From Candidatus Nomurabacteria bacterium (GTDB lineage: Bacteria > Patescibacteriota > Saccharimonadia > Saccharimonadales > CAIOMD01): DNA of 64,000 bases. Location: assembly GCA_020631975.1 (NCBI GenBank), contig JACKGO010000008.1, positions 8,446 to 72,445 of the forward strand, read 5' to 3'. Positions 16,964 to 39,374 of the stretch are shown piece by piece; the stretch's first letter is position 1, and the number at the start of each line of letters is the position of its first letter. Under the pieces are notes generated by a model, which saw only the letters and a program-made list of their open reading frames with translations, was not told the DNA's origin and ran no database searches. The position numbers were made by a program, and so were the translations under genes.

Positions 16964-16992
16964 TTCACATTTTAGGTTTTTTGTGCTATACT
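16964..16992 (+). promoter_or_regulatory. promoter of the TrmB-like regulator (leaderless configuration)
   Basis: TTCACA - 17 nt - TGcTATACT (extended -10). The ATG at 16999 starts 6 nt after the -10 hexamer. Confidence 0.5.
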
Positions 16993-16998
16993 ACTTGC

Positions 16999-17787
16999 AT
17001 GATAAATTTAAGCGCTGCAGGTCTTAACCCAACAGAGGCACACGTATACCAAGTATTGCTCTCTAAAAAAGAGTGGAAGCCAGCCGACCTTGCCAAAAAC
17101 GTCGGCGAATCACGCACAAATATGTACAAAATACTAGATAAATTAACAGCTCTAGAGCTAGCTATTAAGTTTGATAAAAGCAATAAAATCCATTACAGAG
17201 CCACCAACCCCACGCGCTTGGTACAGCTTGCGCAAGAACATCGCGCGCAGTTAGAGCAATCACAAAAAGAACTAGAAACCAGCACCCAATCACTACTTAA
17301 TGAGTTTATTAAAACGCACGAACAGCCCGGTGTACGTTTCTTTATGGGTAAAGATGATATAGAACGTGTTTACCAAGACCAAGTAAACGATCAAAAACCT
17401 ATCTATTTTATGCTTTCACCTAAAGCGATTGATTTTTATGGATATGCGCAGATGCATAAACTCCGTATGCTTGCGGTTAAAGCCAAAATACCTCGCTTTG
17501 CAATAACTCCAGAAAATACACGTGTGCCTAGTAATTATGAAGAAACAGATAAAGCATACTTATTAACTAGAACGTGGTTAGAAGCAAATGACTACACCGC
17601 TTCGTTTGAATGGGGGGTGTATGGGGATAAAGTCTACTTTGTTACATTTGGAGAAGACGCATTGGCAATGATAATAGAAAGTAAAGCTATGGCAGAAGGA
17701 TTTAAACAAATTTTTAGCATTATTGATTCTAGACAGCGCAGCAAACCAAGTTATGCACGCCTACCAAAAACCTATAAATATGCTTAA
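16999..17787 (+). CDS. TrmB-family-like HTH transcriptional regulator (paralog 1)
   Basis: The N-terminal winged-HTH pattern LNPTEAHVYQVLLSKKEWKPADLAKNVGESRTNMYKILDKLTALELAI matches the TrmB HTH family. The C-terminal YGDKVYFVTFGEDALAMIIES is shared with 34926..35714. The ATG at 16999 is preferred over the TTG at 16981 used in the ORF track. Confidence 0.6.
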   Translation: MINLSAAGLNPTEAHVYQVLLSKKEWKPADLAKNVGESRTNMYKILDKLTALELAIKFDKSNKIHYRATNPTRLVQLAQEHRAQLEQSQKELETSTQSLLNEFIKTHEQPGVRFFMGKDDIERVYQDQVNDQKPIYFMLSPKAIDFYGYAQMHKLRMLAVKAKIPRFAITPENTRVPSNYEETDKAYLLTRTWLEANDYTASFEWGVYGDKVYFVTFGEDALAMIIESKAMAEGFKQIFSIIDSRQRSKPSYARLPKTYKYA

Positions 17788-29061: not shown

Positions 29062-29139
29062 TATTTTATTTCCTTTTTGATATGTTTTTGTTTGTAATTG
29101 TATGATTATACATTAGCACAGTTTTGCTTATTTGTCAAT
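29062..29139 (-). promoter_or_regulatory. promoter-leader module of 27541..29061
   Basis: Minus strand: TTGACA - AATAAGCAAAACTGTGC - TAATGT. This is followed by the leader ...CAATTACAAACAAAAACAT... and SD AAAGGAAA. Confidence 0.55.
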
Positions 29140-29179
29140 TATAAGTTTAAGGTTTTGGCTGACGCACGTTACAAATAAC

Positions 29180-29395
29180 GAGCGCCGTACCCAAAAACTT
29201 AAATGGCTTACTGCTTGAAAGGCCATCCACTATTCTTTGACATTAGTTGTCAATTGGAGCCGAATGAGAGGCTTACATCAAATGAGGGGTTCCTAGTAGA
29301 CAGCCTGTTATCAAGCAACCAAGCCAAGTTTTTAACGAGCTTACTCTATAAATAAGCCCTGCCGTGAGCCAAATAGTCTTTAGCTCACGTATAGG
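29180..29395. repeat. Repeat A, copy 1 (~215 bp)
   Basis: Near-identical to 32516..32719 apart from about 9 substitutions and a 13-14-nt indel. It contains the palindrome TTGACA-N5-TGTCAA at 29237..29253. Confidence 0.85.
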
Positions 29396-29488
29396 GGTCG
29401 TCTATTTATGTACTAATTTTTCTACAGCGCGACATACCATTAAACCTATTCTCATTATCAATAGTTTGATATATACATAGTCGCAAGT

Positions 29489-30364
29489 TTAGCGCTTTAC
29501 ATCATTAAGTATTAGCTCGCCCATACCAAAATCTAGCGTTGCGGAATGATGAGGAGTCGGCTCAGCCTCATTTGCATGAAAATGTGCGTAATGTTCTGAT
29601 ACGTATCGTCTTGTGCGGTCACCATTGGCAATCAATTGATATAGTCTGTCGCCTTCTGGCAAGCTGCGAACAAGCTCTTCTCCGTGTGAGTGTGTACGCA
29701 TTGCTTTATGAATAGCGCCTAGGCCTTCCATTGGGTCCGGTAAGCGTTCAGTGGTCCATAATAAATCTCCATAATATGGATCCTCCCAAGCCATCGCTAT
29801 GCCCCCTAGAGAAATATAAAGTTTATATTCATCAGATATTTGTGTTTCTTTCCAATCTTCAAACGCTCCAGGCTCAAGTAGGTCACCCCTTAAAGCCGAA
29901 CCGATGCCATTTACTTCTTGTTCAACAATAGTATGCCCAGGTGCTTGGTTTACAATATGGTAATTGTCACCTCGCCCAGCGGCACCCCAAGGTACAAGTA
30001 GCGTAGGTTGCGTACCGTGGTATTCGGAAATATCCATAGGCAGATCGCGTGTATGTGGGTAGCGGGATAGCCAATTGTGTAACAAAGCATCCAAGATAAA
30101 TGATTGATTAATTGCCACACTATATTCACGCGAGAAACTAATTCGCCTATGAAGAGGCAACAAGCTCTCTCCGGCGAGTAACACGTCTAAATCTCTAGGG
30201 GGCACACCATCTGCTTGGCGAACAGACGATCCATGAACTAATAATGTATAGTCTTCAAGATCCCGTTGTATTGATGCTTTTTCTGATGCAACACCATTAC
30301 CGCGCCCTTGTGTATGTATACTATTTTGTATTGATTCTAATGTACTATTTCTTAATATTTTCAT
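29489..30364 (-). CDS. Pol-beta-superfamily nucleotidyltransferase domain protein
   Basis: 291-aa ORF. HGSSVRQADGVPPRDLDVLL fits the G[SG]-x(9-13)-DhD NTase signature, and a further acidic strand LPMDISEY lies downstream. The C-terminal ~150 aa are unassigned. Confidence 0.55.
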   Translation of the reverse strand: MKILRNSTLESIQNSIHTQGRGNGVASEKASIQRDLEDYTLLVHGSSVRQADGVPPRDLDVLLAGESLLPLHRRISFSREYSVAINQSFILDALLHNWLSRYPHTRDLPMDISEYHGTQPTLLVPWGAAGRGDNYHIVNQAPGHTIVEQEVNGIGSALRGDLLEPGAFEDWKETQISDEYKLYISLGGIAMAWEDPYYGDLLWTTERLPDPMEGLGAIHKAMRTHSHGEELVRSLPEGDRLYQLIANGDRTRRYVSEHYAHFHANEAEPTPHHSATLDFGMGELILNDVKR

Positions 30365-30370
30365 TAAATT

Positions 30371-30418
30371 CCTTTCGCCGTTTTCGGCTCGTCAGTGCGG
30401 ATACACATCCGCAGAGGG
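30371..30418 (-). ncRNA. type III hammerhead ribozyme motif, copy 1 (HHR-1)
   Basis: Minus strand: CCCUC/UGCGGAU-GUGU-AUCCGCA-CUGACGA-GCCG-AAAA-CGGC-GAAA-GG. The core is complete (CUGANGA, GAA, A15.1:U16.1, C17). Stems I and II are closed and stem III is open. The predicted cut is between 30414 and 30413. Confidence 0.6.
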
Positions 30419-30505
30419 TTGGGGTGGGCGCTTACGAGGGCGCCACACCCCTTTGTGATTGCCCAAAGTGGGCTTTGATGCGCTTATCACAAAAGCGCTG
30501 GCGGT

Positions 30506-30883
30506 TTACCACTGATACGATCTGGGGTAAACTTTGCTTTCGGGTGCAGGGCACACCCACACATCGGATCGGTAGGGCTCCATGAGCACTACCGCTTGTC
30601 CGTTGGTGCACGACGCTCCGCCCTCTAGCACTGCCGGGGGCTGTTCGCCACTGTAGCAGTAGGACGGGCTACCTGGCACGGGCAGCCCTCCGGCACAACG
30701 TTCTCTGGCCTGCTCTTCGATGAGGGCCGAGTTCAGCGGGATAAAAATAGCCCCACTGATGATAGCTGTGATGGCTAGTACCGTCATAGCCACCTTATCC
30801 CTCGCTACTAACGCCATGATTGCCATGGCCAGCAGCACGGCGGTCAATGTAAGTACTGCATATGCAGCATCGTACAGGGACAT
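30506..30883 (-). CDS. small membrane protein with a Cys-rich C-terminal domain
   Basis: 125-aa ORF with a strong SD (GGGAGGAGGGGG) before the ATG. It has two predicted TM helices, then a domain with five Cys. It is visibly more G+C-rich than its neighbours. Confidence 0.55.
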   Translation of the reverse strand: MSLYDAAYAVLTLTAVLLAMAIMALVARDKVAMTVLAITAIISGAIFIPLNSALIEEQARERCAGGLPVPGSPSYCYSGEQPPAVLEGGASCTNGQAVVLMEPYRSDVWVCPAPESKVYPRSYQW

Positions 30884-31016
30884 TGTAGCCCCCTCCTCCC
30901 AAACAAATCTGTGCTCACATTTTGCAAGCAGGCTTCAGACTGGTTGGGTTGCCAACTGCTAAATTGTCTTAACAATCAACAATCCAACCAGTCTTTAAAA
31001 TAATTAATACTTGTTA

Positions 31017-31940
31017 TTAATGTTTCAGCCCACTATCAAATAATGCTGGTGTAGCTATAACTGATCTGTTATTATACAAATCCTCCAGATCAATTAAGTA
31101 GGTGTTGTCTTCAGGATGATTGACAGACCATAACATTCCTGCAACTTGTCCTGGTTCAGCTACAAATTTGATCATCATTTCACCATTGTTCAAAAAATAT
31201 AAAGTCTCTGTTACCTCTAGCCCATTAGTCCCAATGTATCTCGTAACATTGCGCCACTTTTCATGTGGTTCTTTTATAAACACTCCATAAGAAACTAGTG
31301 TAGACAGTAGCTCTTGAGTTTTTACCGGCTCGCCCGCCGCCCAACCAGGATATCCATTATTCCCAACCCATACAACTTCACCTTTTTCTGTTTTTTTACC
31401 CATTATGCCAATTTCAAAACCTTCATTAACCGCATTTTGCTTATCACCTACTCTTCGTTCATAGAGTTCCATGGTTTCTTCCATTGATACAATTGGTTCA
31501 ATGATTGGATATTCTTCTGTCTGGTAACGCTTTAAGCCTCGTTTAGTAAGCTCTTCATCGGGCAAATTATGCATAATAGCAACTTCTGAAATACCATGAT
31601 TTCGTTCATTGATTTTTTGCATTAAACTTGGTGTAACTTCATGCAATCCACCATCAATATCACGTATAATTCCATCGCATAAGATTGTTGCGAAACCACA
31701 TAAATTACAACCTCCAACATAAGGATCAAATGTTTTACTATAATCTACATGATCACCACCCAACTCAGTATGTGGTGGATCGAGTAGTAGTCTTACTGCA
31801 TATATACCCGGATGCGTCTTATACAAATCAGCAGGTAAATTATGATGCTGAAAATCGTCTGTTAAAATTCCCTCGCCTAAGATTGGTAAATCAGGAGAAC
31901 TGGAACGTATAGAATCTTCAATTGCTTCTTGTTTATTCAT
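31017..31940 (-). CDS. hypothetical protein
   Basis: 307-aa ORF directly downstream of HHR-2. No family recognised. Confidence 0.5.
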   Translation of the reverse strand: MNKQEAIEDSIRSSSPDLPILGEGILTDDFQHHNLPADLYKTHPGIYAVRLLLDPPHTELGGDHVDYSKTFDPYVGGCNLCGFATILCDGIIRDIDGGLHEVTPSLMQKINERNHGISEVAIMHNLPDEELTKRGLKRYQTEEYPIIEPIVSMEETMELYERRVGDKQNAVNEGFEIGIMGKKTEKGEVVWVGNNGYPGWAAGEPVKTQELLSTLVSYGVFIKEPHEKWRNVTRYIGTNGLEVTETLYFLNNGEMMIKFVAEPGQVAGMLWSVNHPEDNTYLIDLEDLYNNRSVIATPALFDSGLKH

Positions 31941-31980
31941 TACTTATGATATCCTTTCAGGCTACTAGCCTAATATATTT

Positions 31981-32028
31981 CCTTTCGCCGTTTTCGGCTC
32001 ATCAGTGCAGACACACATCTGCAGAGGG
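31981..32028 (-). ncRNA. type III hammerhead ribozyme motif, copy 2 (HHR-2)
   Basis: Minus strand: CCCUC/UGCAGAU-GUGU-GUCUGCA-CUGAUGA-GCCG-AAAA-CGGC-GAAA-GG. The architecture is the same as HHR-1, with a compensatory G:C to A:U change in stem I. The predicted cut is between 32024 and 32023. Confidence 0.6.
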
Positions 32029-32515
32029 TTGGGGTGGGCTTATTGAGTTACGTCCTACCCCGCTCTATGCCTGCCCATGAGTTGGGCTTGAACGCGCATG
32101 CATAGAAAGCGCGTTTACTATATGACCCTAAGCGAGGGGGTTCCGTTTTATTTACAAGGAAACGGTTTCCTGAACCTCGCCGTCCTAGCACGGCTTCGGT
32201 GTACTCGTTGAGTACACGATCTCCTGCCGCTTAAACGGCAGCGGCTTACGCACAACGTCAGTTGGCTTCGCCAATGGACTCACCTCCTTCCGAGGTGTTG
32301 TCCGAATAAGCGCCAACTCGCTTCTTCGGAAGTATTTTAGCCGCCAGTTGGGGCGGAAGCAGTTTTAGTAACCCAGTGATGCCCATACTGGGGATTCGTC
32401 TAGAGCAGGTGCTCTTCGACGATCCGGACAATCTCGTCGGTGTCGACCACTGACGAGATGCCTGCGGCGATCCGCCGATAGTGGGGCTGCCGCCCCACCC
32501 TGGATCAACCTCGCC
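32029..32515 (-). ncRNA. G+C-rich chain of short perfect hairpins (candidate structured RNA; strand uncertain)
   Basis: No convincing ORF. At least 12 local hairpins of 4-8 bp were read directly, for example GUGGGGC/GCCCCAC, AUCUCGUC/GACGAGAU, CCCAGU/ACUGGG, CUGCCG/CGGCAG and GUGUACU/AGUACAC. The 3' ~90 nt are homologous to the three-hairpin module upstream of HHR-1. Confidence 0.35.
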
Positions 32516-32719
32516 GAGCGCCGTACCCAAAAACTTAAATAACTTACTGCTTGAAAGGACATCCACTATTCTTTGACACAAGTTGTCAATTGGAGCCGAA
32601 TGAGAGGCTTGCATCTTAGTAGACAGCCTCTTATCAAGCAACCAAGCCAAGTTTTTAACAAGCTTACTCTATAAATAAGCCCTGCCGTGAGCCAAATAGT
32701 CTTTAGCTCACGTATAGGA
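32516..32719. repeat. Repeat A, copy 2 (~204 bp)
   Basis: See copy 1. The palindrome TTGACA-N5-TGTCAA is at 32573..32589. The copy starts 13 nt after the stop of 32732..33436. Confidence 0.85.
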
Positions 32720-32731
32720 ATTATCTATCTT

Positions 32732-33436
32732 TTAAACTGTTATATCTATAAGATTTTGTGCTTCTATTTTTTGTGCCAAACTCGTGTGTAAAGTTTCAAA
32801 ACCAGCATGTGCTTCTTGGGTATGCACTCGAAAATCGGACAGCTTAGGATCTGCATCATCTTGATATTCTAAGCAATTAGAGTATCCAGCCTCATTCCAA
32901 GTTACTAATTTTCCTATTACAGAAGGAACCCCTTGACTATCTGAAAATAAACCAAATGCATAGTTGTATGGTAAATAATCACCGGTACCAATTGGACGTA
33001 CATCGTTGCTACTGGTGACATGTCTACTATGCGACATTCTTAGCGTTGCTGCACGCGGATTATTATTCCATGTAGAGCCGGGTGTATTTAGGTAGGAATC
33101 GGTAATTAAATCGTAATCTCTATTGTAGAACCCACGACTACCATCACCCCACTGATCACCATATTCCGAACCAAAACTACTTAAAGTTGTCATTTCCCAA
33201 CTCATATCAACACTTACCGGCGTTCTAAATAGTAGTGCTGACAAGCCTGCCCGGACACGTCGGTGTAAGCCAGGTTCATCTGGGTTATCAATGGCGTTTA
33301 AGTCAACTACAGGCATACTGAACCTATCTTCTAGTGTACCCGTATCTGCACGAACTACCTTGTACAGTGCTGTATTGTCTGCGTCAATTAAAAATTCTTG
33401 TATCTCATTTTTCATTATATTACTCCTTATCGACAT
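32732..33436 (-). CDS. hypothetical protein
   Basis: 234-aa ORF lying 20 nt downstream of the preceding ORF. No family recognised. Confidence 0.5.
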   Translation of the reverse strand: MSIRSNIMKNEIQEFLIDADNTALYKVVRADTGTLEDRFSMPVVDLNAIDNPDEPGLHRRVRAGLSALLFRTPVSVDMSWEMTTLSSFGSEYGDQWGDGSRGFYNRDYDLITDSYLNTPGSTWNNNPRAATLRMSHSRHVTSSNDVRPIGTGDYLPYNYAFGLFSDSQGVPSVIGKLVTWNEAGYSNCLEYQDDADPKLSDFRVHTQEAHAGFETLHTSLAQKIEAQNLIDITV

Positions 33437-33456
33437 ATGTTGTCATAGCTTTATTG

Positions 33457-34317
33457 CTATGAATTGTCATTTGTTATACTGTTTAAAAAATCTCTTTCCC
33501 ATGCAGGTATGTCTTCGTCAGGAGAAGATTGTTGTTGTTCTTCTTCTGATATAGTTTGTAAATACTTACCATAGCGCTGCAGGTTGTCTGATTCTAAAAG
33601 CAATGCATCCCACGCCTCTTTAAGTGAAACACCATCTATACTCCTAATGACTTTAAGCTTAGAGCCATCTGGATTATTGTACATAGTTGCCCACTGCTGC
33701 GGTGTGCCTAGCAATAAGTCATTGGTATTAAAGCCATTATTAAGCGCATTCCAAATGCCTTTTGTAGCAACGTTTCCTATCCACTGTGCCGGTATTAGTT
33801 CTTTTGGTACACCAAAGGTTTCAACACCGTCAATATCAAATGATTCTGGTACAACTTTTACTCGGGCAGATTGACCAGCACCTAGCTGATATCTTGCTGT
33901 ATTGCCAGCGGCTTCTATGGCTGCTGTCCAAGCTGCTCCGTCTCCAGCGTACTTTCTACCCTTACCCAAGGTGCTAAAAATAGGTAATCTGAGTGTTGAT
34001 GTTGCAGATTTTTGACTTTCCCAGCCAGTCAGCTGTTTGCTACCTCCAATACCAATGCGATCGGTGAGTGTAGTAGCGACAACCATTGCGTTATTGCTAT
34101 CTTCTGCAGTAATATCACCAGAATACGCTGCAATAGCGCCCAAGACTTGTTCTGTACGCCATGCATGTCTTTCTCTTGATAAACCACCAGCTATTCTTTC
34201 GGCAGCATCCCCAACAATTTCTAAAGATGCTAGCTGTTCTAGTGTCTCTTTTCTTGTATATCCCCAAAAAGGTGATTTTGGGCATGCGTCTGGTAAAATG
34301 ATATCTTGTTCAATCAT
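33457..34317 (-). CDS. hypothetical protein
   Basis: 286-aa ORF with SD GCAGGAGAAG upstream of the ATG. It is the first cistron of the operon. Confidence 0.5.
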   Translation of the reverse strand: MIEQDIILPDACPKSPFWGYTRKETLEQLASLEIVGDAAERIAGGLSRERHAWRTEQVLGAIAAYSGDITAEDSNNAMVVATTLTDRIGIGGSKQLTGWESQKSATSTLRLPIFSTLGKGRKYAGDGAAWTAAIEAAGNTARYQLGAGQSARVKVVPESFDIDGVETFGVPKELIPAQWIGNVATKGIWNALNNGFNTNDLLLGTPQQWATMYNNPDGSKLKVIRSIDGVSLKEAWDALLLESDNLQRYGKYLQTISEEEQQQSSPDEDIPAWERDFLNSITNDNS

Positions 34318-34800
34318 TTACTTCTCCTGCATTTAATTATGATATGGGCATGTATTACCCGCTTGATGCCGCACTTAAGAATACCCTTTATATAATGATA
34401 GGGTTCTTATTGCCCACCCTGCTATTTGTATGACTTTAAAGGGGGTTGGGCGGCACCAGGCGGGCTCGTTGAACTGCGAGATAGGTGTAACCTACCATAT
34501 CAACGAGTACGCGCCAGAGGCACTTGAGCTATATGAGCACTCTTATATGAATAGATGGTAAAGCATATAGAATTAACAAGTATATTCGCGTACGTTTCTC
34601 GGGCGTACCACAGAACGGGCATGAGTTTCGCATCAAAAGCGAATCATTCCTACAGGACCATGTAAATACACATGTTAGCTCCACAACCGCGAGCATTTAA
34701 GCCGCGTACCCACATAATGCGGGAGGGCTCATTTGCCTTGGTAGCTTGCATCTAGTTTATAAGGTGCGATCGATGGATAAGCCTCTCATTCATTCGATCT
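34318..34800 (-). other. ~480-nt untranslated leader, partly G+C-rich (candidate cis-regulatory or structured RNA)
   Basis: Lies between the promoter at 34801..34836 and the ATG at 34317. It has no ORF and contains several local hairpins. Confidence 0.3.
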
Positions 34801-34836
34801 TGCATACAGTATGTCACGTTTTTGCTTTTTTGTCAA
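34801..34836 (-). promoter_or_regulatory. promoter of the 286aa...NTase operon
   Basis: Minus strand: TTGACA - AAAAAGCAAAAACGTGA - CATACT. It has the same -35 and spacer family as the other orphan-gene promoters. Confidence 0.45.
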
Positions 34837-34876
34837 TACTTAGCATGTTATTGATAATATTTACAGTGGTAGCATT

Positions 34877-34918
34877 TGTCATTTTTAAATTGACATTTAT
34901 AACTATATATGCTAGAAT
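34877..34918 (+). promoter_or_regulatory. promoter of TrmB-like paralog 2 with an overlapping inverted repeat
   Basis: TTGACA (34890-34895) - 17 nt - TGcTAGAAT, with the ATG 7 nt after the -10. The inverted repeat TGTCA-N9-TGACA (34877-34895) overlaps the -35. Confidence 0.5.
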
Positions 34919-34925
34919 CTAGGTT

Positions 34926-35714
34926 ATGGACATAGAAATAATAAAAAAAGCTGGGCTAACCGATAGCCAAGCTAAAGCCTATATAGCCCTCATAGAGCAC
35001 GCCGGTTTGTCTGCCGCAGAACTAGCCGAACATATCAACGAATCACGCACCAACACGTATGCAATTATAGATAAGCTTTTTAAGTATGGCCTAATTAGAA
35101 AAAAGGATGACGTTAAATACGGTGCAAAGTACACTGCTAACCACCCCGCAGCACTAGAAGAGCTGGCAGAACGTAGGCGCAAAGTATACGTGCAAAATGA
35201 AAAAATCATCGAAAATAACATGAACAATCTAATAGATTATTTCTATAAATTTTCTGAAGAACCCGGCGCCCGCATTTTACAAGGTATAGAAGGTATCAAA
35301 ACTATATACAACGATACCTTAAAAACCAAAGAGAATATATATCTTTTCCGCACAAGAGCCGATGTAAAAATATTAGGTGAAGATTATTATATTGAATACA
35401 GAAAAAAACGGGTTGATGCAGGTATAAAAACGTATTCTATAACACCGTTTAGCCCTGAAGGTAAAGCACATGTTAAAGAAGGTTTTGATACACAAAATCT
35501 ATACTATAGAACGTTCATACCTGATGATATATACACCGCACCAGTTGAGATAGACATATATGGTGATAAGGTGGCCTTTATTGCCTTTGGAGAAACTCAA
35601 ATGGCTACACTTATAGAAAGCCCCGCGATTGCTATGGCAATGAGGCATATACACGCAATCATAACTGAGTCATTTAGAGAAAAGTCAGAGGCCATGGTAT
35701 CTTCACTATCGTGA
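34926..35714 (+). CDS. TrmB-family-like HTH transcriptional regulator (paralog 2)
   Basis: The HTH is LTDSQAKAYIALIEHAGLSAAELAEHINESRTNTYAIIDKLFKYGLI. The C-terminal VEIDIYGDKVAFIAFGETQMATLIES is shared with paralog 1 and with the fragment at 40457..40618. Confidence 0.6.
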   Translation: MDIEIIKKAGLTDSQAKAYIALIEHAGLSAAELAEHINESRTNTYAIIDKLFKYGLIRKKDDVKYGAKYTANHPAALEELAERRRKVYVQNEKIIENNMNNLIDYFYKFSEEPGARILQGIEGIKTIYNDTLKTKENIYLFRTRADVKILGEDYYIEYRKKRVDAGIKTYSITPFSPEGKAHVKEGFDTQNLYYRTFIPDDIYTAPVEIDIYGDKVAFIAFGETQMATLIESPAIAMAMRHIHAIITESFREKSEAMVSSLS

Positions 35715-35769
35715 TTATAGTACTCCATTACCTTGACGTTCGTTAATAATCATAACTATAATACGCAGT

Positions 35770-36246
35770 ATGACAATTATTCCAGAAGCGTCAAAACCTA
35801 ACGTAGAACTACCTGAAACCCAACGATCTGAAATTTTATATACAGCTATGTTCTTAACTGCCGAGGCTCAGCAAGAGCTACTCGCTAAGTACCCACCAAA
35901 GTATGATACAGTCCATGCAACGCATTCTACCAATGCTTTCAGGGATGCAATACCCCACGGCCCAATTATTGCTGGCATTGAATATACGTTAAAAGTTATT
36001 GGGGTTGTAGACAATGGCCAAGTTCAGGTTGTACTTGTAGAAAATCCTTTCTCACAAAAAGCTGCTCCACATATAACGATATCTTGTGCAATAGATCCTG
36101 ACACGAATAAGCCATATCCACCAAGTATTGCCAATACGGTAATCGAACAAGCAATAGAAGATGGTAGTGTAATCCCAATTACCGGTGTAGAGCTTAATAG
36201 CGTTTCTGGCTACTTTACTAAGTCACATACAGTGGTCACGCATTAG
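35770..36246 (+). CDS. stand-alone 2H (HxT/HxT) phosphoesterase-like protein
   Basis: 158-aa ORF with two H-x-T motifs (VHATHST and PHITISC) at the spacing expected for the 2H fold. It aligns along its length with the C-terminal domain of the 832-aa protein. Confidence 0.55.
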   Translation: MTIIPEASKPNVELPETQRSEILYTAMFLTAEAQQELLAKYPPKYDTVHATHSTNAFRDAIPHGPIIAGIEYTLKVIGVVDNGQVQVVLVENPFSQKAAPHITISCAIDPDTNKPYPPSIANTVIEQAIEDGSVIPITGVELNSVSGYFTKSHTVVTH

Positions 36247-36272
36247 ATTTAAGCTACTTGTATTAAAATAGG

Positions 36273-38603
36273 CTATGTATTTATAACCTTTAGGGATGTT
36301 TTGCCGACACGTTTGTTCCTCAAAATAGTTAAGTGGTGCGCAGCCATTTCTATAAATTCTCCAAATAAATGCGGGTCACTGCATATCGGAGAAAACGTCT
36401 CACGCACATGGTAATCTTTATGCATAATACCTTCGCCATGCCTTTGGCGACTATGCTGCACGCCAACAGTAATCAATGCGGCCAAAAGGGTATTGGGGTC
36501 GTTTTCTGGGTTTGTAGCATCTTCACTAAATGTACCGAGATCTAATGCTACATGCCCAGATATCTTTTCTAGATCTAATCTCATAGATACTTTTACATTG
36601 CGGGGCTTGCCAGCTTTCGTTACACTAAGGTGTTTACCAAATATTGCCTGCTGGTCAGCTGGCGTTAAAGCCAAACTCCACCGTAATCGCGCCTCTGCTT
36701 CGTCTGTTTCGTGTGGGCGTAAAGTCATACCTACCGAATCATTTATTCTAGAAAATGATCTTAAGCCACTATCTCTATCAGATACTGGTAAGTGATCATC
36801 TACTAGTGCTGACTCTGCCATCGCATAATTACGAGTCTGATGCTCGATGAGCTTAAGACCCTGGATTACTTGTTCAATTGAATTAATTGTTAGCCTAGCA
36901 GATTCAGTGCCATCACGATGATAAAATACTGCATCTTGAGATTTACCAGCTAGGATATCTGCGGCAGGGCTTAATATTTGCGAAACTCTCATTTCTATAC
37001 CACGCTTAATACCAATAAAATATTCTTTATACACACAGTCATCTTGTGCAAACCATGCTCTTTTTTCCCAATTTAACATATTAGCACGTATGTCATTAAT
37101 GAGGCTGAATATCTCTTGTGAGGCTTCCCCTTTTCTATCTACTTCCGCTAAATCAATTATTGCCTCACCAAGATGATCACCATATTCTAACGCTAAAAAA
37201 GCCTCAAGTACTTTAATTCTTTCGTTTTCATTAGTTTTGTTTAAAGCCTTGCTTAGACGTGCAAAATTACCCAGACTTGTCTGTTCCGAAAAATATTGTG
37301 CAAAAATTAGTTGCGACCTCATCGATAATTTGTTTAATTTTATGCCAATTCTAGATTCTAGGGCTATTCGCACTTGTGGTAAGAAGTACACTTCGCAAAA
37401 TCGTTTAAATTCATCTTCGTTATGTAAGTTTGGGACAAACATATCTTCGCCGAACTCTCCCAGTGCAATAAAAGGCGACGTAATTCCTTGGTATTGAAAT
37501 GCATATACTCTGCCCCCTGGACCAATAATTGCGCTAATGCCGTCGCTAGACACAGGTATAATGTCAACAATGTCACGCTTGCTTTCATCGTCAACATTAT
37601 CCTGGTCTCTGAAGCTACCATTCGCACTGGCAGAATAATAGTTATACCTAGTGTCGCCATGTTGAATTTTGCCTAACATCTCGCGACTAGAAGACATAGC
37701 TTCGTCTGTAACTATATCAACTAGGGGATTACCTGTACGTTCAGCACTGCCTTTGGTGTGGCTATATATTCTTTCCCATATAGCGTCGCAGGTGCCGCCA
37801 TATCCCCAATGCGGAGCACCCTCAATAAATAGAGCAACTTCTTTTAGGGTTACTATATTTCCAACGAGACTAACGATGTCTGTATCGCTTAGTAATTCGT
37901 CCAACAAACTACTATTTAATCGAGATGCTAACGCATATATCATACCTTGGAGTGTAGTTCTATCACCTAATTTCAAAGCAACCGGAGAGCTTAATATAAA
38001 ATTTAAATTACTCCATTGTTCGCGCCCTGAATCATTTGAGGCTTGGAATATCAGACCTTCGAGTACACTACCATATATTGAACTAAGCGCTTCGTCTGCG
38101 CTTTTAATTGAATCAATATTGCGTAAAAATTGGCCATTATTTTTATCAAAGTATAGATTATTTAGTGCTTCAATATAGTCTCTCAGCAGTACGCTAGAAG
38201 TTTCAGGATCTCTATATTGCTGAAAGTTGGGATTATTCTTAATTGAGTATTCGAGGCTTTGATTTAGTTGTCCTTTAGGTAAACTATTTATGTGTACTAA
38301 AATATCATTAGTTTCATGTGAATTTAACGATTTAACTCGCCGCATCATCCACGAACGAGACCCCTTTTCTCCGTCAATGTTTTGACCATATTGATTTTGC
38401 CAATAGTCAAGAAATGTATCATTTTCTTCTTTGTTTACTAAACAATCAAATAGGTCGTTGAGTTCAATTTGTCTCTCTAGTAAATCCTGTATTGACGTAG
38501 CAAGAGGGTCATTTAATCCCTCAAGATAACTATGTACTTCTTGCGTAAAACGACTATGCTTGAAGTCACTTTTAGATTCAGGGTTTATTACTGTTGTCGG
38601 CAT
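36273..38603 (-). CDS. large orphan protein A (776 aa)
   Basis: Its C-terminal third is clearly homologous to the central part of 40602..43100. Examples: AFLALEYGDHLGEAI vs AFLATEYGESLGDSI; RPHETDEAEARLRW vs RPTETPQAEARIRW; LLAALITVGVQH vs LLAALITAGVQH; DYHVRETF vs DYHVRDTF. Confidence 0.6.
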   Translation of the reverse strand: MPTTVINPESKSDFKHSRFTQEVHSYLEGLNDPLATSIQDLLERQIELNDLFDCLVNKEENDTFLDYWQNQYGQNIDGEKGSRSWMMRRVKSLNSHETNDILVHINSLPKGQLNQSLEYSIKNNPNFQQYRDPETSSVLLRDYIEALNNLYFDKNNGQFLRNIDSIKSADEALSSIYGSVLEGLIFQASNDSGREQWSNLNFILSSPVALKLGDRTTLQGMIYALASRLNSSLLDELLSDTDIVSLVGNIVTLKEVALFIEGAPHWGYGGTCDAIWERIYSHTKGSAERTGNPLVDIVTDEAMSSSREMLGKIQHGDTRYNYYSASANGSFRDQDNVDDESKRDIVDIIPVSSDGISAIIGPGGRVYAFQYQGITSPFIALGEFGEDMFVPNLHNEDEFKRFCEVYFLPQVRIALESRIGIKLNKLSMRSQLIFAQYFSEQTSLGNFARLSKALNKTNENERIKVLEAFLALEYGDHLGEAIIDLAEVDRKGEASQEIFSLINDIRANMLNWEKRAWFAQDDCVYKEYFIGIKRGIEMRVSQILSPAADILAGKSQDAVFYHRDGTESARLTINSIEQVIQGLKLIEHQTRNYAMAESALVDDHLPVSDRDSGLRSFSRINDSVGMTLRPHETDEAEARLRWSLALTPADQQAIFGKHLSVTKAGKPRNVKVSMRLDLEKISGHVALDLGTFSEDATNPENDPNTLLAALITVGVQHSRQRHGEGIMHKDYHVRETFSPICSDPHLFGEFIEMAAHHLTILRNKRVGKTSLKVINT

Positions 38604-38668
38604 TGTATATGTTTTTGTTTTAGTTAATTACATATATATTATTAGCACAGTTTTGCTTTTTTGTCAAT
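38604..38668 (-). promoter_or_regulatory. promoter-leader module of large protein A
   Basis: Minus strand: TTGACA - AAAAAGCAAAACTGTGC - TAATAA, then the leader GTAATTAACTAAAACAAAAACATATACA before the ATG. No SD is visible. Confidence 0.55.
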
Positions 38669-38748
38669 GTAGTTGTTTGTTTTTTTATGGTAAAAGCTAA
38701 CAGGGTTTGATCTGTTGAGTGATGAATTAGGCTTAGGTTACTAAGCAA

Positions 38749-39279
38749 TTACAGGCTCAAGTAATATTGGAGTTCGGCGATGGATTCTTTGATGTCATCT
38801 AGTGCGCGGTGGGTTTCTTTTTTATTGAACACTTTGCCATATTTGCCTTGAATAACAATTTTAAAGCTACTTACATCTAGCATACGGTAGTGCAAACGCG
38901 CTTCTATATCTGGCCACCATTGGCGGATAAAGCGCCTGTCTTGATGAATGCTATTGCCTGCCAGCACTACTGGTTCATTGCCAAAATTGCGGAGCACAAA
39001 CTCTAGAAAATCTGCTACAACGCGCTGTTCGTTTGGGGCGACGTTTACCCTGTCTAGCAAGCCACTAGCGGTGTGTGTGCTGCGTGACCATTCGTTCATG
39101 CGTGCTAAGACTTCTGGTGGTTGATACACCACTGATTCGTACCTATCTAGTTCTGTAAAATTAAAATCTGTTACTATGGCAGCAATTTCTAGAATACGGT
39201 CTGTTGCGGGTATTAGACCTGTCATTTCAAGATCTAACCAAAGTAGTTTTTGTGGTATGTCGTTTTTTGTAGCGTTCAC
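38749..39279 (-). CDS. orn: oligoribonuclease
   Basis: 176-aa DEDDh exonuclease with motifs LLWLDLEMTGL, GNSIHQDRRF and HRALDDIKESI. GTG start. Confidence 0.85.
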   Translation of the reverse strand: MNATKNDIPQKLLWLDLEMTGLIPATDRILEIAAIVTDFNFTELDRYESVVYQPPEVLARMNEWSRSTHTASGLLDRVNVAPNEQRVVADFLEFVLRNFGNEPVVLAGNSIHQDRRFIRQWWPDIEARLHYRMLDVSSFKIVIQGKYGKVFNKKETHRALDDIKESIAELQYYLSL

Positions 39280-39302
39280 TGCTATCTATTATTGCACATA
39301 TA

Positions 39303-39374
39303 GGAAAATCCCGCGGGGCTTGTGGCCACACGCGGGACGATTTAGGTGGTTTGAATCGGCCCACCTAGAAAGCC
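39303..39374 (-). terminator. Repeat C copy 1: double-hairpin 3' module and terminator of the small-membrane-protein cassette
   Basis: The minus strand has UAGGUGG...CCACCUA, then UCCCGCG...CGCGGGA followed by UUUUCC. It is about 90% identical to 46236..46308. Confidence 0.6.

Follow-up and report, generated by a model that had tools for sequence, protein, structure and literature searches.

The window analysed here is a stretch of 64,000 nucleotides (nt) of contig JACKGO010000008.1 (assembly GCA_020631975.1, positions 8,446 to 72,445 of the forward strand), and its element of interest is HH-1, a type III hammerhead ribozyme motif on the minus strand that is accompanied by a paralogous copy, HH-2. 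The host is a member of Candidatus Saccharibacteria and the locus is a chromosomal one from a metagenome-assembled genome (MAG); the window matches contig JAGQMV010000013 of GCA_020428475.1, and DnaG is named Candidatus Saccharibacteria bacterium. HH-1 is located in a 141-nt spacer that separates two co-directional open reading frames (ORFs) of 125 and 291 amino acids (aa). Both belong to a minus-strand array that comprises, in this order, a 286-aa ORF, a 234-aa ORF, about 750 nt without a convincing ORF, which hold HH-2, a 307-aa ORF, the 125-aa ORF, the HH-1 unit, the 291-aa ORF and a 506-aa ORF.

HH-1 carries a complete type III hammerhead core

The initial annotation of this DNA had described a complete type III hammerhead core on the minus strand and had placed the predicted cut between positions 30414 and 30413. 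Read from 30418 to 30371, the minus strand is CCCUC UGCGGAU GUGU AUCCGCA CUGACGA GCCG AAAA CGGC GAAA GG, which agrees with that description letter for letter, and every core position is present. The elements are as follows:

30371-30418, minus strand: HH-1, type III hammerhead, identified by sequence, RF00008, the clade model R1 (see below) and the minimum free energy (MFE) fold
30417-30415 with 30373-30371, minus strand: stem III, 3 bp, open (A:U, G:C, G:C)
30414, minus strand: C17, with the predicted cut between 30414 and 30413
30413-30407 with 30402-30396, minus strand: stem I, 7 bp, loop GUGU
30395-30389, minus strand: core C3-A9, CUGACGA
30388-30385 with 30380-30377, minus strand: stem II, GCCG/CGGC, 4 bp, loop AAAA, closed by G10.1:C11.1
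30376-30374, minus strand: G12 A13 A14
A30373:U30415, minus strand: A15.1:U16.1 pair

The invariant hammerhead positions are complete and in the right order, including a non-G nucleotide (C) at H17, the cleavage site, and as C17 is at 30414 the originally predicted cut site fits. The MFE structure of the 58-mer containing HH-1 is the hammerhead fold (-16.1 kcal/mol), in which loops close stems I and II and stem III stays open. Moreover, a 23-nt pattern that combines the core and stem II occurs twice in the window, compared to 0.00 occurrences expected from 100 shuffles.

When the segment 30200-30700 (501 nt) is searched against Rfam with E-value thresholds, RF00008 (Hammerhead_3) is the sole meaningful match, HH-1 scoring 32.1 bits (E = 4.7e-5). 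In a search of the whole window, i.e. both strands and all 4227 families, the Hammerhead_3 match to HH-1 has an E-value of 0.006, and HH-2 is recognized on the same strand as HH-1 with 31.2 bits (31983-32025).

HH-1 belongs to a clade with covarying stems

A retrieval pattern was derived from the HH-1 sequence, in which the core and the two loops (GUGU, loop I, and AAAA, loop II) were fixed and every stem position was free. It matches 48 IMG/VR viral contigs and 90 stretches among 185,579 species genomes. For 80 of the 90 genome loci labels were listed: 59 of these (74%) belong to Patescibacteria/candidate phyla radiation (CPR), i.e. Saccharibacteria, Paceibacterota, Microgenomates and others, 14 to uncultured Gammaproteobacteria/Pseudomonadales/archaeon MAGs, and seven are unclassified. 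From phage contigs and genomes, with the window and its strain relatives excluded, we compiled 121 distinct 58-nt sequences (alignment A3).

Standard pairs make up 93% of the cells in A3, compared to 66% in shuffles and at most 47% if the partners are slid, and double-sided changes number 579 versus 167 in shuffles. Covariation is found in each of stems I, II and III, 11 of the 17 pairs being changed on both sides. That the free stem positions pair is evidence independent of the retrieval pattern. A covariance model built from A3 (model R1) gives HH-1 67.0 bits (E = 2.4e-21), a score that is high partly by construction as the retrieval pattern was derived from HH-1, and HH-2 65.4 bits. The next match of model R1 in the window reaches 14 bits, so the window contains exactly two copies. 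Taken together, the core, the compensatory paralogue (see below), the covarying clade of 121 sequences and the MFE fold of the 58-mer bear out the type III hammerhead that had been annotated, and on these sequence-based grounds it is strongly supported that HH-1 truly belongs to this family.

In 37 relatives recognized only by the model the loops are GUGU, GCGU, GAGU or GUAA and AAAA, GAAA or long inserts, respectively, and no rule of loop-loop pairing is evident. In phage members a stop codon lies 24-71 nt before the ribozyme in 41 of the 45 members with an upstream ORF and the next start follows after about 17-36 nt in 34 of the 43 with a downstream ORF. At other CPR loci, arrays of 3-7 hammerheads occupy consecutive intergenic regions among orphan ORFs. 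A scan of the JGI metagenomes for hammerheads of the type found at this locus returned only the identical sequence and one unrelated GC-rich organism.

HH-2 is a paralogue with a compensatory change

31981-32028, minus strand: HH-2, paralogous type III hammerhead, C17 at 32024, identified by RF00008, model R1 and alignment A1

HH-2 is located 1610 nt upstream of HH-1 on the same strand. The core (except N7), stem II and the strands of stem III are identical in both copies. Stem I, in contrast, is UGCGGAU/AUCCGCA in HH-1 and UGCAGAU/GUCUGCA in HH-2, i.e. the copies differ by a compensatory double change from G:C to A:U and by a change from U:A to U:G, and the free position N7 is C in HH-1 and U in HH-2. 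The similarity reaches about 85 nt upstream of the ribozymes, giving a repeated unit of about 130 nt (alignment A1). The ATG of the 307-aa gene follows HH-2 after 40 nt, and HH-2 and HH-1 bracket the 307-aa/125-aa gene block in the way that defines clustered same-strand hammerheads.

From the sequence, the fold, the covariation of the clade and the paralogue, all of which are observed here, we infer cleavage, co-transcription and effects on RNA stability and translation. We thus consider it probable that HH-1 functions in cis as a type III hammerhead and that HH-1 and HH-2 together divide one transcript into separate RNAs.

A structured domain precedes both ribozymes

The features upstream of the two ribozymes are:

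30421-30451, minus strand: P4, GC-rich hairpin of 11 bp, separated from the downstream 5' strand of stem III by 3 nt (MFE fold)
30453-30498, minus strand: candidate H-type pseudoknot, S1 formed by 30498-30494 with 30484-30480 and S2 by 30492-30486 with 30459-30453
30473-30461, minus strand: P3, a hairpin in loop 3 of the pseudoknot (MFE fold, as for S1)
32031-32114, minus strand: upstream domain of the HH-2 unit, S1 32114-32109 with 32097-32092, S2 32106-32100 with 32070-32064, P3 32087-32073, P4 32061-32031

Three hairpins upstream of HH-1 had been noted before (30480-30498, 30461-30473 and 30421-30451), and all of them are contained in the MFE fold of 30365-30510, which is more stable than 200 out of 200 shuffles (z = -4.1). 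What had been missed is that they are part of the conserved unit of about 130 nt, which includes a candidate pseudoknot and also precedes HH-2. In the candidate pseudoknot, where S2 joins the loop of hairpin S1 to a segment past P3, S1 has 5-6 bp, loop 1 1-2 nt and S2 7 bp, and P3 lies within loop 3. S2 is UUGUGAU/AUCACAA in HH-1 and in the strain variant L003, and UCUAUGC/GCAUAGA in HH-2, so that between HH-1 and HH-2 both sides are changed in six of the seven pairs; 20000 shuffles gave a complement of the length of S2 in 79 and 126 cases (0.4% and 0.6%), respectively. S1 and S2 could equally represent alternative structures instead of a pseudoknot. The P4 equivalent of L003 covaries as well (GGCGC/GCGCC versus GGCUUUU/AAAAGCC). 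Clade-wide, a stable hairpin ending at most 4 nt from stem III is found in 85% of the viral and 66% of the genome members, compared to 30% of controls taken 300 nt upstream.

Relatives of the pseudoknot domain beyond this species were found neither in the 90 genome loci nor in the 48 viral loci or the JGI metagenomes, leaving three known variants, and an exact search of the 185,579 species genomes for the composite unit CCCCAACCCTC...CTGANGAG...CGAAAGG gave no match, so that either the unit is missing from the genome representing this species or the species is not in that collection. When the upstream domain, the direct repeat R (see below) and the GC-rich leader were compared with the fetched loci by BLAST, matches were confined to the ribozyme body.

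As the pseudoknot begins 7 nt past the stop codon of the 125-aa ORF, a stimulator of stop-codon readthrough or frameshifting was considered as well, but was rejected because no ORF ends before the HH-2 and L003 units.

The domain, comprising the pseudoknot, P3 and P4, might bind a ligand or a protein and thereby gate stem III, which would turn HH-1 into an allosteric ribozyme whose cleavage is conditional. That about 85 nt are kept before both copies and in the strain variant, and that S1, S2 and P4 show compensatory changes, would suit such a role, and since the 3' strand of P4 ends only 3 nt from a marginal stem III, small shifts could tip the balance. However, Rfam has no match to the upstream domain (30200-30700), not even a riboswitch at E <= 10, three variants are too few to assess conservation, and a plain hairpin is the rule at this position across the clade, which argues for a generic structural or 3'-end role. 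We therefore regard allosteric control as unlikely.

Genes flanking HH-1 and the ribosome-binding site

The genes and the translation signal next to the ribozymes are:

31017-31940, minus strand: 307-aa orphan ORF, which opens the gene block between HH-2 and HH-1, annotated 'hypothetical protein'
30506-30883, minus strand: 125-aa ORF, GC-rich, encoding two hydrophobic segments and a tail rich in Cys, stop codon 7 nt before S1
29489-30364, minus strand: 291-aa orphan ORF immediately downstream of HH-1 (ORF list)
30362-30375, minus strand: Shine-Dalgarno (SD)-like AAAGGA (30375-30370) and ATG (30364-30362) of the 291-aa ORF, separated by a 5-nt spacer
34926-35714, plus strand: gene for a TrmB-family helix-turn-helix (HTH) regulator, divergent from the hammerhead array (Pfam PF01978, 1.3e-10)

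The proteins of the array have no match in Pfam, PHROG or PADLOC. For the 291-aa protein a search of 5.8 billion sequences yielded a single relative, a variant with 97% identity; the best match in the PDB has an E-value of 0.03 and is not convincing, and an AlphaFold2 prediction without alignment is unusable (predicted local distance difference test score of 31). The label 'nucleotidyltransferase', which the initial annotation had given to this ORF, rests on a short GS...DxD-like string, and as Pfam, PHROG, PADLOC and the PDB return nothing convincing for it, the label is unsupported. The 125-aa ORF had been taken for the gene of a small membrane protein. The ORF and its two hydrophobic segments are there, but it matches no family, and its coding status is uncertain because it is GC-rich, shows zero synonymous and four non-synonymous strain differences, and, although ENA and Logan records include it, is omitted by NCBI when annotating the same contig.

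Both the ATG at 30364 and the SD sequence AAAGGA are as originally read. G30372 and G30371 of AAAGGA double as positions 15.2 and 15.3 of stem III, and the ATG lies 8 nt past GAAA; AAAGGA also precedes the 307-aa and 506-aa ORFs. A start codon at most 14 nt from GAAA is found in 11 of 96 genome-derived members, including those at purA-like (L095, L110, L121), GT2 and Nudix genes, although in the purA-like homologues of L107 and L132 the ATG is further downstream. Such tight coupling of ribozyme and start codon is absent in all 31 phage members, where the distance is at least 15 nt, and at HH-2. Hence, of the original idea that self-cleavage releases the SD, the overlap of AAAGGA with stem III is real, but it is neither general, as HH-2 and the phage members show, nor unique (11 of 96), and the release as such is plausible only. 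'Freeing' an SD held by a 3-bp stem III is unlikely to have a large effect, since such a stem is a trivial barrier to the ribosome. The recurrence of the start-site placement among the genome members nevertheless makes a link between hammerhead folding and translation initiation plausible.

The window contains a second TrmB-like gene (16981-17784, plus strand), i.e. two in 64 kb overall. Among the genome loci, 20 of 90 carry a TrmB-family HTH gene (including L071, L076, L089, L099, L116, L127, L129, L154 and L157), compared to none of 47 viral loci, and in 19 of these 20 the hammerheads have it on their upstream side, in divergent or co-directional orientation. As the window alone has two such genes, the rate may be near background and only the consistent upstream position is notable.

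Proposed processing of the transcript

In the mechanism that we propose, stems I and II, both very stable hairpins, would fold during transcription, and the short stem III would then close the three-way junction. According to hammerhead chemistry, the 2'-OH of C17 (30414) would attack its own 3' phosphate, resulting in an upstream RNA that ends with ...AACCCUC and a 2',3'-cyclic phosphate and a downstream RNA that starts with 5'-OH-UGCGGAU. HH-2 would make the equivalent cut 1610 nt upstream of that of HH-1, and one transcription unit would thus give rise to three RNAs, i.e. a structured leader of about 700 nt, an mRNA for the 307-aa and 125-aa ORFs, and an mRNA for the 291-aa ORF. The upstream products would end 7 nt past the 11-bp P4 hairpin, after the candidate pseudoknot, which may provide an exonuclease-resistant 3' end without transcription termination. 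The downstream products would carry a 5'-OH, and their first portion would be the compact ribozyme body, which at HH-1 would be followed by the ribosome-binding site. As a 3-bp stem III cannot hold the products of HH-1 together, AAAGGA would then be single-stranded beside the ATG. The net effect may be that the stability and translation of adjacent cistrons are uncoupled.

Stem III and other points against the proposed function

Several points weigh against this proposal, besides the score of model R1 that is partly built in. The first concerns stem III. That it has just 3 bp had been raised as a caveat from the beginning, and indeed HH-1 is at the short end of the clade: the mode is 5 contiguous pairs, and among the 121 members stem III has 3 bp in seven, 4 bp in 24, 5 bp in 44 and 6 bp in 25, with 3 bp or fewer in 13. 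The predicted pair probability of stem III is 0.23-0.29 in the isolated 58-mer (clade median 0.61) and about 0.02 in a 181-nt context. Cleavage of HH-1 may thus be slow or partial, given so short and marginal a stem, although according to the structural models self-cleavage activity is likely.

Moreover, the Rfam score of HH-1 is below gathering (32.1 versus 48.5 bits), so that the match above gathering by which the ribozyme was to be verified is not obtained; at gathering thresholds only a tRNA is reported for the whole window, and the hammerhead surfaces at E-value thresholds only. In the RF00008 alignment the reason is that the outer pairs of stem III are mismatched and that loop II is four positions short of the consensus. 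Other clade members pass the threshold, namely L112 (51.6 bits) and L154 (52.9 and 49.3 bits), and the HH-2 of L003, which has a 5-bp stem III, scores 36.2 bits.

Co-transcription of the array is suggested solely by the absence of consensus promoters and terminators, none of which was found between the 125-aa and 291-aa ORFs. Finally, the flanking ORFs show scant sign of purifying selection, so that the term 'processing an operon' may overstate expression. A comparison of strain contigs shows 22 variable sites in the 291-aa ORF (16 non-synonymous, six synonymous). They are spread evenly over the codon positions, which suggests that purifying selection is weak or absent, or that selection is diversifying.

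These points might be taken to mean that HH-1 is a decaying or inactive relic of a phage or mobile element, in which stem III has eroded to 3 bp and cleavage is inefficient, the more so as stem III is thermodynamically marginal, the flanking ORFs are poorly constrained and the neighbourhood varies, with insertion sequence (IS) insertions and deletions among strains. Decay is hard to reconcile, however, with two paralogues that keep the full core, perfect stems I and II and a compensatory change although their units have diverged by about 20%, or with the 141-nt spacer, which is invariant in every strain contig recovered. The same 3-bp design of stem III, ACCUH...GAAAGGAA, also recurs in the unrelated Patescibacteria (CPR) genomes L132 and L148. 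We thus consider a relic quite unlikely, and a functional pair of ribozymes remains the interpretation that we prefer.

Comparison with known systems

HH-1 resembles the type III hammerheads of RF00008 in its full core, the three helices with an open stem III and the cut after C17, and relatives within its clade pass gathering; it differs by its score of 32.1 bits, its 3-bp stem III and a 4-nt AAAA loop II in place of the longer loops of viroid and satellite seed sequences. A further comparison can be made with RiboJ-type synthetic insulators, which were engineered from the sTRSV ribozyme and consist of a hammerhead-type ribozyme just upstream of the ribosome-binding site, providing a defined 5'-OH and a structured leader irrespective of the upstream transcribed sequence. 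HH-1 shares the placement before the ribosome-binding site, but its arrangement is natural.

A close parallel is provided by prophages, where multiple hammerheads flank genes or short gene blocks and cut polycistronic RNAs of about 2 kb in vitro and, for the Agrobacterium tumefaciens set, in E. coli (Perreault et al. 2011, PMC3088659). In prokaryotes, small non-conserved ORFs are often flanked by hammerheads, whose biological role is still called open (PMC6155905). Likewise, two same-strand ribozymes bracket small non-conserved ORFs in a variable region here, and polycistronic cutting is what we propose. In contrast to the prophage clusters (PMC3088659; PMC6155905), the host is a Saccharibacteria (CPR) chromosome, a pseudoknot-plus-hairpin domain precedes each ribozyme, and HH-1 overlaps the ribosome-binding site. 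As to a phage or prophage setting, six neighbouring proteins lack a PHROG match, the region is strain-variable and contains IS elements, and the clade is present in the 48 IMG/VR contigs. Two same-strand hammerheads around an orphan gene block are an arrangement known since 2011, of which this locus is a further case.

Very short stems III are also known from Penelope-like elements, whose hammerheads are described in PMC6155905 as minimal motifs without helix III and which, going by the title of Lunse et al. 2016 as cited in PMC5737381, act as dimers. HH-1 is similar in its short stem III, but this stem is open with both strands in one transcript, and nothing suggests dimers. Weinberg et al. 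2017 (PMC5737381) describe another structured motif, which is found close to DUF1874 genes in consecutive intergenic regions. It is comparable in that it recurs between successive small ORFs, and in L003 a DUF1874 (STIV_B116-like) gene lies directly upstream of the HH-2 unit; besides RF00008 no Rfam family was found at E <= 1 in the window or in L003.

The geometry of the pair further recalls plant retrozymes, which have paired direct type III hammerheads (PMC4918200) with identical stem III strands, the counterpart here including direct repeats of about 130 nt. Unlike a retrozyme, the locus has no primer-binding site, polypurine tract or target-site duplication and its segment is coding and 1.6 kb long, i.e. 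the resemblance is one of geometry alone. This geometry might allow a circular or spliced RNA: the 1610-nt segment from 32023 to 30414 would be excised with 5'-OH and 2',3'-cyclic-phosphate ends and joined by RtcB or by reversal of the ribozyme reaction, yielding a circular mRNA for the 307-aa and 125-aa ORFs that would resemble a retrozyme or a viroid-like RNA. As HH-1 and HH-2 are on the same strand and their stem III strands are identical, the 5' product end of HH-1 and the 3' product start of HH-2 would rebuild a complete hammerhead, and Perreault et al. raised this possibility for clustered prophage hammerheads (PMC3088659). Yet when they sought spliced or circular products they found none (PMC3088659), a 3-bp stem III disfavours keeping the ends together for ligation, and the arrays of 3-7 hammerheads at other CPR loci fit serial processing better than a single circle. 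A circular product is thus very unlikely, and we return to separate linear RNAs as the probable outcome of cleavage.

Strain variation and repeats

In L003 the window segment 34306-32047, which begins at the first start codon of the array and stops halfway through the HH-2 unit, is swapped for another gene set that includes the GC-rich STIV_B116/DUF1874 gene next to the HH-2 unit, and the GC content of the cassettes is sharply unlike that of the genome. Hence, one hammerhead unit coincides with one recombination breakpoint. Given the gene-set swap, the IS insertions and a deletion among strains (see below), the region is a variable island.

That the units of about 130 nt act primarily as DNA, i.e. 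as boundaries or recombination substrates of exchangeable cassettes, with RNA cleavage being secondary, is highly improbable: the breakpoint of L003, the deviating GC content, the hammerheads in consecutive intergenic regions among orphan ORFs of other CPR loci and the attC-like role discussed for the motif near DUF1874 genes (Weinberg et al. 2017, PMC5737381) speak for it, but no integrase adjoins the array, a single breakpoint within a repeat is an outcome of ordinary homologous recombination, some members precede housekeeping-type genes (purA-like, Nudix, GT2), and an invariant catalytic core with covarying stems follows RNA rules that a DNA site does not need.

Several strains (L016, L018, L019, L020 and L172) carry an IS element with an rve-family transposase at about 29139-29144, just past the direct repeat R2. 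Beyond the IS element, L019 matches 38668-39374, implying loss or rearrangement of about 9.5 kb (29144-38668) that include the whole hammerhead array. R2 (29177-29395) and its counterpart R1 (32513-32718), both on the minus strand, constitute a 217-nt direct repeat with 90% identity and a 13-nt indel. Each copy has a terminator-like hairpin at its start and a TTGACA palindrome inside, and together they flank a 3.3-kb unit comprising the leader, HH-2, the 307-aa and 125-aa ORFs, HH-1 and the 291-aa ORF. Contig L013 joins the 291-aa ORF via an R1-type repeat back to the leader. This junction could reflect a tandem or circular DNA form of the 3.3-kb unit or an assembly chimera, which would explain it equally well because R1 and R2 do not differ over their first 57 nt or so.

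Between repeat R1 and the HH-2 unit lies a GC-rich stretch of 418 nt (32113-32530, minus strand; 52-59% GC compared to 42% in the genome), which folds into about 12 near-perfect hairpins (MFE -179 kcal/mol, z = -6.9). It contains no convincing ORF and has no Rfam match, and L003 has a different GC-rich segment in its place, which includes the DUF1874 gene.

Distribution and placement of the clade

The locus itself is an ordinary example of a known arrangement. What goes beyond the ordinary is the concentration of the clade in Patescibacteria, the pseudoknot-plus-hairpin domain and the recurrent placement at start sites, and no literature was found that pairs hammerheads with Patescibacteria or Saccharibacteria. 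As the arrays punctuate orphan genes, often downstream of TrmB, and single copies coincide with the starts of conserved genes (purA-like, Nudix, GT2) in several CPR lineages, we speculate that the clade may serve CPR/Patescibacteria as a general device of gene expression instead of being a passenger of phages, providing independent mRNAs, and possibly exchangeable cassettes, by self-cleavage; we consider this rather doubtful. If true, the Saccharibacteria locus would be one instance of a lineage-wide system with units at cassette boundaries, and the concentration in Patescibacteria together with the copies at conserved metabolic genes could point to routine maturation of mRNAs by self-cleavage. 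Irrespective of this, the locus is a useful natural case, since it combines paralogues with a compensatory change, conserved structures at the 3' ends and one ribozyme that abuts a ribosome-binding site, so that effects on upstream stability, downstream stability and translation should be separable in a single reporter experiment.

A number of further observations concern the clade. In five Patescibacteria lineages a hammerhead directly precedes a gene resembling that of adenylosuccinate synthetase (L095:6973-7030; L110:1288-1345, minus strand; L121:3817-3874; L132:2861-2918; L107:256-313, minus strand), and others directly precede GT2 (L073, L111) and Nudix genes (L075, L114, L120). In several such loci, e.g. 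L111, L121 and L073, the start codon lies within or right past the 3' strand of stem III.

Many genome members have GTTCTTT or GATCTTT 4-8 nt past stem III (L076:2543-2560, L083, L112, L122, L150, L154), which the copies in the window lack. GTTCTTT was considered as the mark of a downstream non-coding RNA and dismissed, since Rfam is empty there in 20 loci.

Same-strand arrays of 4-6 hammerheads, spaced by 300-1300 nt and placed between small ORFs, occur in Patescibacteria at L071:3337-6414, L129:5050-7497, L127:4564-7575, L077:60-2422 and L076:1535-3638. Of 23 ORFs tested in these arrays 22 have no Pfam match, and the remaining one encodes a PemK/MazF toxin. Finally, in 19 of the 121 members the G:C pair that closes stem II (10.1:11.1; columns 35 and 46 of A3) is replaced by U:U, as in CUGAUGA-UUCG-AAAA-CGAU-GAAA, which constitutes a recurrent deviation from the canonical hammerhead.

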